DNA from: an uncultured Gemmatimonadota bacterium
Lineage (GTDB): Bacteria; GCA-2686955
Length of the DNA: 42,403 nucleotides
Assembly: GCA_964490075.1 (NCBI GenBank)
Contig: CAZBBK010000049.1
Location: 1 to 42,403 of the forward strand
Direction: 5' to 3'
Position 1 is the stretch's first letter. Each line of letters starts with the position of its first letter. This document shows positions 649 through 4,186 of the stretch, piece by piece. Made by a program: the position numbers and the translations under genes. The notes beneath the pieces were generated by a model. The model was not told where the DNA came from. It made no database searches and was given only the letters and a program-made list of their open reading frames with translations.

Positions 649-844
649 GTCACAACTCCGCGATCTCGATCGAGAGTCTCAAGCCATGACGCAAATACGG
701 TCGTAGCTCGGCGTTCTTCCGCCTGAGTGCCGAGTTGCGGCGCATATACGGCCGTAACTCCGCACTCTCGCTCGAGAGTGGAGAGTCGTGTCGCGAAGGG
801 GCGTCATGACTCGCTCCTCTGATCGCGGAGCTCGGCTTTGTGTC
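649..844. repeat. Four degenerate 42-bp palindromic units at 51-52 bp period (REP/BIME-like)
   Basis: Units start at 649, 700, 751 and 803; the first two linkers are gcaaatacg and gcatatacg. Unit 2 forms a 15-bp stem with G-U pairs; unit 3 contains cactctcg-ct-cgagagtg. Confidence 0.6.
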
Positions 845-884
845 ACGGGGGGCGCCGGGACCCCCACCGCCGATCGATTTCGCT

Positions 885-914
885 TTGGCATCCCGCCCCC
901 CGCCGCGCTATGCT
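885..914 (+). promoter_or_regulatory. Putative sigma70 promoter for tRNA-Ala/SRP RNA
   Basis: TTGGCA (885-890), 18-nt spacer, TATGCT (909-914), ending 16 nt before the tRNA. Confidence 0.35.
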
Positions 915-930
915 GGAGGGTCCCATTTCT

Positions 931-1006
<76 letters not shown>

Positions 1007-1012
1007 AGACCC

Positions 1013-1042
1013 CCCTCCGGTCCGCCTTCGCGGTCCGGAGGG
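1013..1042 (+). other. Stem-loop downstream of the tRNA (processing or termination element)
   Basis: ccctccgg-t-ccgc-cttc-gcgg-t-ccggaggg; no clear U-tract. Confidence 0.5.
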
Positions 1043-1059
1043 ATTCGGGAACGACCTTT

Positions 1060-1194
<135 letters not shown>

Positions 1195-1202
1195 TCCTTT
1201 TG

Positions 1203-1230
1203 CCCCGGGCTCCGGCGCCGGAGCCCGGGG
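1203..1230. repeat. Perfect 28-bp palindrome
   Basis: ccccgggctccggc|gccggagcccgggg between ffs and the dnaX RBS. Confidence 0.85.
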
Positions 1231-1265
1231 ATGCGGACTCTGTCCGGCGGCCTGGAGGTCTATCG

Positions 1266-3074
1266 ATGGCGGACCAAGGTTTTTACACCGTCCTCGCCCG
1301 CAAGTACCGGCCCAAGCGCTTCTCCGAGCTGGTCGCGCAGGAGGCGATCTCGACCACCCTGCGCAACGCGCTGCGCTCTGAAAAGGTCTACCACGCCTAC
1401 CTCTTCACCGGCCCGCGCGGCGTCGGCAAGACCACCTCGGCGCGCATCCTCGCCAAGGCCCTGAACTGCCCCGAGGCCACGGACTGGGACCCCTGCGGCG
1501 AGTGCCCCACCTGCGAGCGCATCGCCGGCGGCGGCCACGACGACGTGCTGGAGATCGACGGCGCCTCGAACAACGGCATCCAGCAGGTGCGCGAGCTGCG
1601 CGAGAGCGCCGCCTACGTGCCGAAGGAGAGCAAGCACAAGATCTACATCATCGACGAGGTGCACATGCTCTCCACCGCGGCCTTCAACGGGCTGCTCAAG
1701 ACCCTCGAGGAGCCGCCGCCCCACGTCGCCTTCATCATGGCCACCACCGAGCCGCAGAAGATCCCGGCCACGGTCCAGTCGCGCTGCCAGCGCTTCGACT
1801 TCAAGCGCCTGACGCCGGCCGAGATCGGCGACCGCGTGGTGCAGATCGCCGCCGCCGAAGGGATCGAGATCGACGACGAGGCGGTCTACCAGATCGCCCG
1901 GCTGGCCGACGGCTCGATGCGCGACGCCCAGTCCCATCTCGACCAGCTGCTGGCCTTCTGCGGAGAGAAGATCTCCGGCGCCGACGCCGCCCAGGCGCTG
2001 GGCGTGGTGCCCGACGAGCTCTTCCTGCGCTGCAGCGAGCTGATCGGCACCCAGAGCCCCGACCAGGTCTTCCCCTTCGTCGAGACCCTCTACACCGACG
2101 GCCACGACCCGATCCTCTTCCTGCGCGGCCACCTCGACCACCTGCGCACCCTGATCGCCCTCGGCCTGGGCGCCACCCCGCCCGAGGTCGAGCGCATGCC
2201 CGACGCCCTGCGCCAGGCCCACCAGGAGCTCGCGGAGCGGACTCCGGTCGGCGACCTGGTGCGGGCGGCGCGCGTGGTGTCGGAGGCCGAGCGCGCGATC
2301 CGCGGCGCCGCCAACCCGCGCGTCGAGCTGGAGCTCACGCTGGTGCGCCTGGCCCTGCTCGCCTCCACCGTCGACCTGCGCGAGGTCCTGACGGGCATCG
2401 AAAAGGGTGGTGGTTCGCCGGTCGGCCAGGGGGCGGAGCGGAGCGGCCGAGCCAGCGGGAGGGTCCCCCGCCCTTTTGAAGGCGAGGCGCGCGGCGGTGG
2501 CACGGCGCCCGCCAAGCGCGATCAGCCCGCACCCACCGCCGCGCCACCGGCGGTGTCCCAGCCGCCCCCCGACGGCGCGGCCCCCGATCGACCGTCCGCC
2601 ACGCCGGCGAAGCCCGAGCCGCCCTCCGCCGCCGCCTCATCCACGGCGCCCGCAGCTCCCCCCTCGGCCCCCTCGAGGCCCCCCAGGCCGGAGGCGGTGG
2701 CCGACCTGCCGGCCATCCTCGGCCGGCGACTGCACGGCGATGCCCCTCTGGTGGCCGCCACCCTGGCGCAGGCCGCCGCGCGCACCACCGAGCGGGGCGG
2801 CGTGCGGCTGGAGCTGCCGGCGGCGAGCCGAGCGGCCCTCACCCGGGCCACCGCGCCCGAGGCGATGGCCCTGATCGAGGCGGTGGTCCACGACACCCTC
2901 GGCTCGCCCCTCGAGGTGCAAATCGTGGCGGCGGAAGGGAAAGAGGGCAACCAGCGACCAACCCGCGTCCCCGGCCGCGCGCCAAAGCGTCACGAGACGG
3001 GCGAGCTGAGCAAGATCGCGGCGGAGGAGCCGCGCGTGAGAGAGATCATGGAGCATTTCGACGTCGGTCAGTGA
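1266..3074 (+). CDS. dnaX: DNA polymerase III subunit tau/gamma
   Basis: LARKYRP, Walker A GPRGVGKT, Zn motif C-x8-CGECPTC, EIDGASN, IIDEVHML, SRC, GSMRDA; Pro/Ala linker. ATG 1266 follows GGAGGT (track start 1200 is too long). Confidence 0.96.
   Translation: MADQGFYTVLARKYRPKRFSELVAQEAISTTLRNALRSEKVYHAYLFTGPRGVGKTTSARILAKALNCPEATDWDPCGECPTCERIAGGGHDDVLEIDGASNNGIQQVRELRESAAYVPKESKHKIYIIDEVHMLSTAAFNGLLKTLEEPPPHVAFIMATTEPQKIPATVQSRCQRFDFKRLTPAEIGDRVVQIAAAEGIEIDDEAVYQIARLADGSMRDAQSHLDQLLAFCGEKISGADAAQALGVVPDELFLRCSELIGTQSPDQVFPFVETLYTDGHDPILFLRGHLDHLRTLIALGLGATPPEVERMPDALRQAHQELAERTPVGDLVRAARVVSEAERAIRGAANPRVELELTLVRLALLASTVDLREVLTGIEKGGGSPVGQGAERSGRASGRVPRPFEGEARGGGTAPAKRDQPAPTAAPPAVSQPPPDGAAPDRPSATPAKPEPPSAAASSTAPAAPPSAPSRPPRPEAVADLPAILGRRLHGDAPLVAATLAQAAARTTERGGVRLELPAASRAALTRATAPEAMALIEAVVHDTLGSPLEVQIVAAEGKEGNQRPTRVPGRAPKRHETGELSKIAAEEPRVREIMEHFDVGQ
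2382..2520 (+). promoter_or_regulatory. Candidate -1 programmed ribosomal frameshift cassette in dnaX
   Basis: In-frame X_XXY_YYZ heptamers A_AAG_GGT (2402-2408) and C_CCT_TTT (2471-2477); -1-frame TGA at 2477-2479; SD-like GAGGT (2382) and GGAGG (2458); a GC hairpin after each site. Confidence 0.5.
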
Positions 3075-3118
3075 CACCGGACCTGGGCTACGATCCACAG
3101 GCTCCCGAGCGCGGTGAC

Positions 3119-3196
3119 CACCCCGTCCCATTCCAATCTCATCCCGATCCCACTCCATCCCACCCCAATCCCAATCCCCTTCCCCTTCCCACTCCC
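3119..3196. repeat. C-rich degenerate (A/T)TCCC repeat; G-tracts on the minus strand
   Basis: ccccgtcccattccaatctcatcccgatcccactccatcccaccccaatcccaatccccttccccttcccactccc in the dnaX-ybaB spacer. Confidence 0.75.
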
Positions 3197-3217
3197 AAGA
3201 GATAAAGGACCGATCCG

Positions 3218-3544
3218 ATGCGCGGAATGCCGAACATGGGCAAGCTGATGAAACAGGCCCAGCAGATGCAGGCCAAGATGGCCGAGGTGCAGGAGCAGAT
3301 GAAGGAGATGCGCTGCGAGGGGCAGGCCGGGGGCGGCGCGGTGCGGGCGGTGCTCAACGGCAACAACGATCTGATCGAGATCGTCATCGACCCGGAGGTG
3401 GTCGATCCGGAGGACGTGGAGATGCTGCAAGACCTGGTGCTGGCGGCGGTTCGCGGCGCCCGCCAGCAGGTCGACGCGCAGCAGCAAGAGGCGATGAAGA
3501 AAGCGACCGGAGGCATGGGATTGCCGCCGGGAATGGGCCTCTAG
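3218..3544 (+). CDS. ybaB: YbaB/EbfC nucleoid-associated protein
   Basis: MKQAQQMQ, AGGGAV, DVEMLQDLVLAA; dnaX-ybaB-recR synteny. Confidence 0.93.
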   Translation: MRGMPNMGKLMKQAQQMQAKMAEVQEQMKEMRCEGQAGGGAVRAVLNGNNDLIEIVIDPEVVDPEDVEMLQDLVLAAVRGARQQVDAQQQEAMKKATGGMGLPPGMGL

Positions 3545-3577: not shown

Positions 3578-4186
3578 GTGAAACCGGTCCAGTTCGCCCC
3601 ACCTCTGGAGAGGATGGTGCGCGCCCTGAGCTCGTTGCCGGGGATTGGCCGGCGGGCGGCAGAACGGATCGCCCTCCACCTCGCGGCCCGTCCGGAGGCG
3701 GAGGTGCGGGATCTCGCGAACGCGCTGGCGGAGTCGCGGGGGGATCTGAAGAGCTGCGGGTCGTGTGGCAACCTGACCGGGCGCGATCCGTGCGAGCTCT
3801 GCGCCGACTCGACGCGCGATCCGAAGGTGATCTGCGTGGTCGAGAGCCCGCGCGAGGTCGCGGTGATGGAGCGCTCGCGGATGCACCGCGGGCGCTACCA
3901 CGTGCTGGGGGGGCTGCTGGCGCCGCTGGAGGGGGTGGGCGCCGACCAGCTGCGCATCGCCGAGCTGGCGGCGCGGGTGCGGGACGAGGGCGTGGAAGAG
4001 GTGGTGCTGGTGCTCAGCCCGAGCCTCGAGGGCGACGCCACGGCGCTCCTGGTGCAGCGCGAGCTGGCCGACTCGGGCGCGCGCATCAGCCGGGCGGCGC
4101 GCGGCATTCCGGCCGGCGGCAGCCTCGACCACCTCGACGAGGTCACCCTGGGCAACGCCTTCGAGGGCCGGCGGGAGATGCATTGA
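3578..4186 (+). CDS. recR: Recombination mediator RecR
   Basis: LPGIGRRAAERIA HhH, CxxCGN...CxxC Zn finger, ICVVE, YHVLGG Toprim. Confidence 0.95.
   Translation: MKPVQFAPPLERMVRALSSLPGIGRRAAERIALHLAARPEAEVRDLANALAESRGDLKSCGSCGNLTGRDPCELCADSTRDPKVICVVESPREVAVMERSRMHRGRYHVLGGLLAPLEGVGADQLRIAELAARVRDEGVEEVVLVLSPSLEGDATALLVQRELADSGARISRAARGIPAGGSLDHLDEVTLGNAFEGRREMH

Follow-up and report, generated by a model that had tools for sequence, protein, structure and literature searches.

A 42,403-nt contig of an uncultured Gemmatimonadota bacterium (assembly GCA_964490075.1, contig CAZBBK010000049.1), referred to below as the window, carries a dnaX gene in which the clamp-loader domains are followed by the heptamer C_CCT_TTT and, directly upon it, a TGA stop codon in the −1 frame. 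Comparison with related genomes makes it likely that this heptamer, here called site 2, is a working programmed −1 frameshift signal, by which the short DnaX protein gamma would be made beside full-length tau. A second heptamer lies upstream, A_AAG_GGT (site 1), and did not prove to be conserved. An earlier note on the window had proposed that this lineage makes gamma with a signal other than that of Escherichia coli, naming both heptamers; for site 2 the proposal gained comparative support, and for site 1 it did not hold.

A rare heptamer joined to a −1 stop codon

The product of the 0 frame was identified as a DnaX clamp-loader protein by its Pfam matches to PF13177 (DNA_pol3_delta2, 7e-45), the ATPase lid PF22608 and gamma/tau domain III PF12169, the last covering residues 237–373. 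The gene is 73% GC, and 93% of its third codon positions are G or C (GC3). Only two in-frame heptamers of the form X_XXY_YYZ are present, site 1 (2402–2408) and site 2 (2471–2477), and only two stop codons interrupt the −1 frame over the whole 1.8 kb, at 1379 and 2477. Site 2 is located 31 residues past domain III, a place where A-rich heptamers and nearby −1 stops are common in other dnaX genes. In the −1 frame it reads CCC TTT TGA, the TGA overlapping the last T of the heptamer, and a slip would yield a product of 404 aa that equals tau residues 1–404 and ends in ...VPRPF. Recheck of the letters returned exactly the positions given earlier for both heptamers, GGAGG, GAGGT and the −1 TGA, and bore out the two products, of 404 and 602 aa, expected from the −1 stop that both heptamers share.

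The two codons of site 2 are rare. CCT accounts for 2 of the 54 Pro codons of dnaX and TTT for 2 of its 14 Phe codons, with GGT at 6 of 47 Gly codons; the corresponding shares genome-wide are 5%, 9% and about 8%. Together with the GC3 value, these counts confirm the break in codon bias at CCT, TTT and GGT that had been read from the window alone.

The background frequency of such sites was obtained from 1,466 long open reading frames (ORFs) of high GC3, with coding-type composition, in the window genome (781,805 codons). The number of heptamers in dnaX is ordinary, 1.42 being expected per 602 codons in this genome. In-frame C_CCT_TTT was found 10 times, with an immediate −1 stop in the dnaX copy only, and any heptamer with an immediate −1 stop 13 times. 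It is the type and place of the site 2 heptamer that are unusual, not the heptamer count.

Three elements of an E. coli-type cassette were found at site 2, namely an in-frame heptamer after domain III, a −1 stop directly after it, and an internal Shine–Dalgarno (SD)-like sequence. The E. coli heptamer A_AAA_AAG is not among them, the dnaX linker containing no A-rich heptamer. The SD-like element is GGGAGGG, with the core GGAGG at 2458–2462. Across 1,097 long ORFs of the window genome, GGAGG peaks 4–10 nt before the first ATG, and it also stands 8 nt 5' of the dnaX ATG, for which reasons a canonical anti-SD sequence is likely in this organism.

Downstream of site 2, the 40 nt that contain the candidate stem-loop fold to −24.2 kcal/mol (z = −2.5), a value reached by 3% of shuffled sequences. 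An alternative pairing of 2489–2498 with 2510–2521 is about equally stable. Coordinates of the features are collected in Table 1.

Table 1 Features of the window dnaX gene and its predicted recoding site
Feature	Position	Strand	Basis
dnaX coding sequence, 0-frame product tau (602 aa)	1266–3074	+	ORF translation; Pfam; C-terminal part conserved in relatives
Predicted gamma: codons 1–404 in frame 0, slip at 2471–2477, stop at 2477–2479	1266–2479	+	Predicted from sequence
Internal SD-like GGGAGGG, core ending 8 nt before the heptamer	2457–2463	+	GGAGG core present in 3 of 3 family genes
Candidate slippery heptamer C_CCT_TTT (site 2); P-site CCT Pro403, A-site TTT Phe404	2471–2477	+	Invariant in 3 of 3 family genes, 0 of 105 others; rare codons
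−1-frame stop TGA, first codon after the slip	2477–2479	+	Kept in three genes despite 0-frame GAA (Glu) to GAC (Asp)
GC-rich stem-loop, candidate stimulator, starting 3 nt past the heptamer	2481–2513	+	Fold of −24.2 kcal/mol over 40 nt
A_AAG_GGT (site 1), in frame, not conserved, not counted in the signal	2402–2408	+	Absent from L002 and L003

Conservation of site 2 among relatives

The phylum is represented by five species genomes in the collection searched, one of them the window genome (G000). DNA was compared between the window and two dnaX genes of the same family but other genera, L002 (genome G003) and L003 (G001), whose DnaX proteins are 67% and 64% identical to that of the window. The assembly of a third family relative, G002 (84% complete), lacks dnaX, and G004 belongs to another family.

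The 12-nt sequence CCGCCCTTTTGA is invariant in the window, L002 and L003, while the 75 nt on each side, anchored at the site, are nearly unalignable. Elsewhere in the three genes the longest invariant runs measure 18, 16 and 12 nt, all of them in the ATPase core. All three family genomes with dnaX share the site 2 heptamer together with its −1 TGA and a GGAGG upstream, and CCCTTTT is the sole in-frame heptamer of L003 and one of two in L002. After Phe404 the window gene has GAA (Glu) and its two relatives have GAC (Asp), a replacement that leaves the GA of the −1 TGA intact. At columns with a conserved degenerate amino acid, the same codon occurs in all three genes in 105 of 311 cases (34%). 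Twelve window codons at such columns end in A or T; three of these are identical in all three genes, two being the CCT and TTT of site 2. On this comparison, the constraint at site 2 is one that acts on nucleotides.

The distance from the end of GGAGG to the heptamer is 8, 8 and 13 nt in the three genes, and the chance of finding GGAGG 6–16 nt upstream of a given position is 0.031, 0.013 and 0.068, respectively. The window and L002 share AGCGGGAGGG around this element, and therefore their two GGAGGs may be one event. The downstream hairpins cannot be aligned across the three genes; that of L003 is strong (−24.3 kcal/mol, z = −4.1). Conservation in relatives had been put forward beforehand as the check on the proposal. 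At site 2 the heptamer, GGAGG and −1 TGA passed it in all three genes, and the stem predicted after the heptamer is stable in the window and L003 but weak in L002, with a z-score that fades with length in the window; the heptamer of site 1 is missing from both relatives.

Five further family members were found in a protein collection by BLASTP (52–65% identity), including P0002, P0004, P0005 and P0006. The peptide R-P-F-[DE] occurs exactly once, at residues 402–436, in six of the seven family proteins, which represent four lineages with a mutual identity of at most 67%.

A wider survey covered 108 dnaX loci, of which 3 belong to the family and the remaining 105 come from a wide range of phyla. 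Loci were retained if they contained an ORF of at least 330 codons with a P-loop and an alignment score >300, and 6 of 114 were dropped (duplicates L031–L034, and L046 and L106 without a qualifying ORF); the linker of L012 contains N bases. C_CCT_TTT with an immediate −1 stop was found in all three family genes and in none of the 105 others. Of the 105, 17 have a heptamer that lies 10–80 codons past domain III and is followed by a −1 stop no more than two codons away, mostly of the A-rich kinds known from E. coli and Thermus (A7, A_AAA_AAG, A_AAA_AAT). Among the 18 other dnaX genes with a GC content of at least 0.60, a single one has such a linker site, a G7 run.

The survey also returned sites of other types. 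The linkers of L020, L036 and L045, which are dnaX genes from a metagenome or unrelated genomes, share GAAAAAAAA(A/C/G)TCCTGA at 23–34 codons past domain III, an A8 run whose −1 TGA comes two codons later; this resembles the A-run kind of recoding already known for dnaX. A_AAT_TTT with a stop, seen in an AT-rich family (G012 and three relatives), was set aside as uninformative, heptamers and −1 stops being too frequent there.

Additional family sequences were sought in several sources. A metagenome scan for dnaX relatives gave 80 loci, all of at most 54% identity and none from the family, and a search for shorter family dnaX fragments found none. Four DNA sequencing runs contain the locus; their contigs are identical to the window at the site and offer no informative variants, and the other matches in these runs are ATPase cores of other organisms.

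Alternative explanations, site 1 and the surroundings of dnaX

The strongest alternative places the selection on the protein: RRPF[D/E] would be a short peptide motif of the disordered tau linker, serving for instance in docking or protease recognition, with the heptamer and stop as by-products. The recurrence of R-P-F-[DE] in six of seven family proteins, within a linker that otherwise varies freely, is what such a motif would leave. A tau motif of this form is not known to us, though no search aimed at one was made. Peptide selection does not account for the identical rare codons, the probability of CGC-CCT-TTT being about 0.001–0.004 per genome when the codon usage of the respective gene, excluding the site, is taken as the basis. 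Nor does it account for the GA kept across the change from Glu to Asp, or for GGAGG in all three genes. There is a precedent for proteolysis in Caulobacter, in which gamma arises by cleavage of tau (PMC5009743), but the codon-level evidence makes selection on the peptide an unlikely explanation of site 2.

A second alternative is that the 12 nt are a functionless ancestral remnant, retained by chance and shared ancestry in a gene that makes tau only. Such a reading draws on the small number of DNA sequences compared (three), on the tendency of GC-rich sequence to fold well anyway, and on the fact that P0006 and G004 do without the motif. Against it, the linker around site 2 has diverged past alignment while the 12 nt have not, which makes chance retention unlikely; just 34% of conserved residues have a codon common to the three genes, motifs of this type are rare in the genome, and three separate features, GGAGG, heptamer and stop, occur together. 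We regard a remnant of this kind as quite improbable.

Site 1 raises a separate question, whether it forms a second, lineage-specific shift site feeding the same −1 stop. As a conserved signal it was rejected, the heptamer being absent from L002 and L003 and the fold behind it lying at the level of shuffled sequence. For that fold (2409–2470) z = +0.10, with 102 of 200 shuffles as good, and the hairpin that had been placed at about 2414–2458 is thus at chance level. In favour of a private role, A_AAG_GGT is in frame and rare in the window genome (4 in 781,805 codons), belongs to the shifty, under-represented motifs described by Sharma et al. (PMC4066793), and is followed by three rare GGT codons. 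A GGAGG-13 nt-A_AAG_GGT-TAA cassette is also found in dnaX of another phylum, in two of three species of one genus. Besides the missing conservation and the chance-level fold, two details speak against it: the GAGGT (2382–2386) lies 15 nt 5' of the heptamer, and tRNA-Gly(GCC) would presumably re-pair on GGG with a wobble mismatch. A slip at site 1 would give gamma with a 24-residue tail, GWWFAGRPGGGAERPSQREGPPPF, Lys380 being encoded alike in both frames, and the transframe peptide GWWFAGRPGGGAER would be diagnostic of it. Such use of site 1 seems improbable; at best the heptamer may be an extra signal peculiar to the window genome.

Two observations touch on the same heptamer. The three rare GGT codons directly 3' of site 1 are consecutive (2409–2417). 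In the other phylum, L009 (G011) and L119 (G044) contain an identical arrangement of GGAGG, 13 nt, A_AAG_GGT and an immediate −1 TAA, about 69 codons past domain III at a GC content of 0.43; L120, from the third species of the G011 genus, lacks the A_AAG_GGT and TAA cassette. Judged by its layout, this cassette may be another non-classical dnaX shift site that uses the site 1 heptamer.

The least probable account of site 2 is another RNA or DNA function, as an intragenic terminator or attenuator (a GGGAGGG/CCCGCCC stem followed by UUUU), an RNase site or a stretch of transcriptional slippage on the T run: GGGAGGG can indeed pair with CCCGCCC just before UUUU in the folds of the window and L002, but L003 lacks this stem, a terminator scan flagged nothing at 2460–2480, where only four T are present, known slippage tracts are much longer (runs of 9 A or T; PMC5009743), and a truncated mRNA gives no reason for the retained −1 stop.

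The frameshift reading of site 2 has its own weak points. The DNA comparison covers three related genomes, in which a common origin is possible for two of the three GGAGG elements, and the case is built on DNA, all four runs with the locus being DNA runs from one study. The z-score of the window hairpin fades in longer windows, to −1.4 over 48 nt and −1.1 over 50 nt, its stem begins a mere 3 nt after the heptamer, and the hairpin of L002 is weak (−9.6 kcal/mol, z = +0.5). A cmscan of positions 800–3400 with E up to 1 matched the signal recognition particle (SRP) RNA, tRNA and weak chance hits, but not the Rfam DnaX frameshifting element. Since they are absent from the assembly, 16S rRNA and tRNA-Phe (the latter by ARAGORN) enter the proposed mechanism with an assumed anti-SD sequence and an assumed anticodon, which we take to be GAA. 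The RRPF[DE] peptide could itself be selected. The protein of the most distant, fifth lineage, P0006, has PRPPRAD in place of RPF, and no heptamer is present in the dnaX linker of G004, a relative at class level; the signal is accordingly restricted to a single family, and not every member of the group has it.

The neighbourhood of dnaX is a usual one. A tRNA-Ala gene (931–1006) and the SRP RNA (1080–1180) precede it, and it is followed by ORFs of 108 aa (3218–3544) and 202 aa (3578–4186), presumably ybaB and recR. Between the SRP RNA and the dnaX start lies a perfect GC-rich palindrome (1194–1225; CCCCGGGCTCCGGC/GCCGGAGCCCGGGG) with weak chance Rfam matches only, which probably marks where the SRP RNA transcript ends. 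Past the end of dnaX, the spacer before the following gene contains, at 3118–3198, a tract of about 80 nt of C, A and T that is nearly free of G and consists of ATCCC/CTTCCC-like units; the same spacer is short and ordinary in L003 and of different sequence in L002. The linker of L003 contains a Glu-Arg repeat run (ERERER..., then QAQEQEQ) that is absent from the window gene. ARAGORN listed 44 tRNAs in G000, including tRNA-SeC (selenocysteine), and none for Phe, Thr, Ile or Tyr; the assembly is rated 95% complete yet has no 16S rRNA.

Proposed mechanism and relation to known systems

In the mechanism that we propose for site 2, a ribosome at C_CCU_UUU would have its P site occupied by tRNA-Pro, paired with CCU, and its A site by tRNA-Phe, paired with UUU. 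The internal GGGAGG 8 nt upstream would pair with the anti-SD end of 16S rRNA, the GC-rich stem-loop just 3' would resist unwinding, and the two tRNAs would move back together by one base, to CCC UUU. Three tRNA-Pro anticodons, GGG, CGG and UGG, are encoded in the genome; for tRNA-Pro(GGG) the slip would convert a G:U wobble into a G:C pair, and tRNA-Phe would again be positioned on UUU. The chain would end at Phe404 because the next −1 codon is UGA. The predicted gamma would comprise clamp-loader domains I–III and a 31-residue tail, without the C-terminal third of tau, and ribosomes that do not slip would make the 602-aa tau. The sequence elements, their strict conservation, their rarity and the presence of tRNA-Pro(GGG) are shown; that slipping occurs, how efficient it would be, and what the SD-like element and the hairpin contribute are inferred.

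The choice of heptamer is consistent with reporter work in E. coli. Sharma et al. (2014, PMC4066793) count H_HH.U_UU.Y among the heptamers that shift most efficiently in E. coli, give cognate re-pairing in the A site as the main rule, and describe C_CC.U_UU.U and A_AA.G_GG.U as both shifty and under-represented. The H_HH.U_UU.Y class, one of the most efficient in that study, includes C_CC.U_UU.U and is in this respect like site 2, but the constructs were E. coli reporters with IS911 or IS3 stimulators.

Frameshifting at A_AAA_AAG makes the short DnaX in Escherichia, Salmonella, Neisseria, Vibrio and relatives, as described by Antonov et al. (2013, PMC3711429) and Atkins et al. (2016, PMC5009743). 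Site 2 resembles E. coli dnaX in the gene concerned, in its place after domain III and in the 0-frame product tau (PMC3711429, PMC5009743), and it shares the layout of an SD-like element, an X_XXY_YYZ heptamer, a candidate downstream stem-loop and a −1 stop reached at once or nearly so. It differs in the heptamer, which is A_AAA_AAG (Lys-Lys, read by a single tRNA-Lys) in E. coli and C_CCU_UUU (Pro-Phe) here. In E. coli one −1 codon is read before the stop (PMC5009743), whereas the stop is immediate here; as the stop is the first −1 codon, gamma would contain no residue foreign to tau. The SD spacing of 8–13 nt, the missing Rfam match and a hairpin that is unconserved in sequence and weak in one relative are further differences.

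Other routes to a short form are A9 transcriptional slippage in Thermus, two-ORF poly-A genes and proteolysis in Caulobacter (PMC3711429, PMC5009743). Thermus thermophilus dnaX and the two-ORF genes likewise have two products and stops near the recoding site, but they depend on long A runs, and tau of the two-ORF genes requires recoding, whereas site 2 has four T and tau is one open frame. Caulobacter crescentus also has a short DnaX without the E. coli signal (PMC5009743), but its route is post-translational and has no nucleotide signal, in contrast to the codon-level conservation seen here.

The identical heptamer C_CCU_UUU serves in NS1' of the West Nile virus/Japanese encephalitis group (PMC11797035). 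That system involves a eukaryotic ribosome, a viral RNA, a pseudoknot-type stimulator and a longer transframe product, whereas site 2 belongs to a bacterial cellular gene with an SD-like element and an immediate stop. Full-text literature searches for dnaX together with this heptamer gave no paper that, judged by title and abstract, deals with such a dnaX signal, a result that leaves the supplements of PMC4066793 (including its 69 candidate clusters) and of PMC3711429 uncovered.

Whether gamma, the short form of DnaX, matters in bacteria other than E. coli is a long-standing dispute, and each independent route to gamma, whether frameshifting, polymerase slippage or proteolysis, is evidence for selection of the short form. 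To our knowledge, natural use of C_CCU_UUU has so far been confined to flaviviruses, to which E. coli reporter constructs may be added. If our reading of site 2 is true, it would represent a natural bacterial use of this heptamer in a compact shift-and-stop design, and an independent origin of gamma recoding in a GC-rich lineage with only five species genomes in the collection searched. Annotation pipelines would miss such a gamma, because tau is one intact reading frame. On balance we favour the broader view that a deep-branching, barely sampled marine phylum evolved its own tau/gamma cassette, in which a flavivirus-type C_CCU_UUU is fused to UGA in a 9-nt shift-and-stop unit, gamma is an exact N-terminal copy of tau, and RRPF[D/E] is the imprint of an RNA signal and not a protein motif. 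Gamma recoding would then have arisen repeatedly with unrelated slippery sequences, and the short DnaX would therefore have been selected well beyond Proteobacteria.

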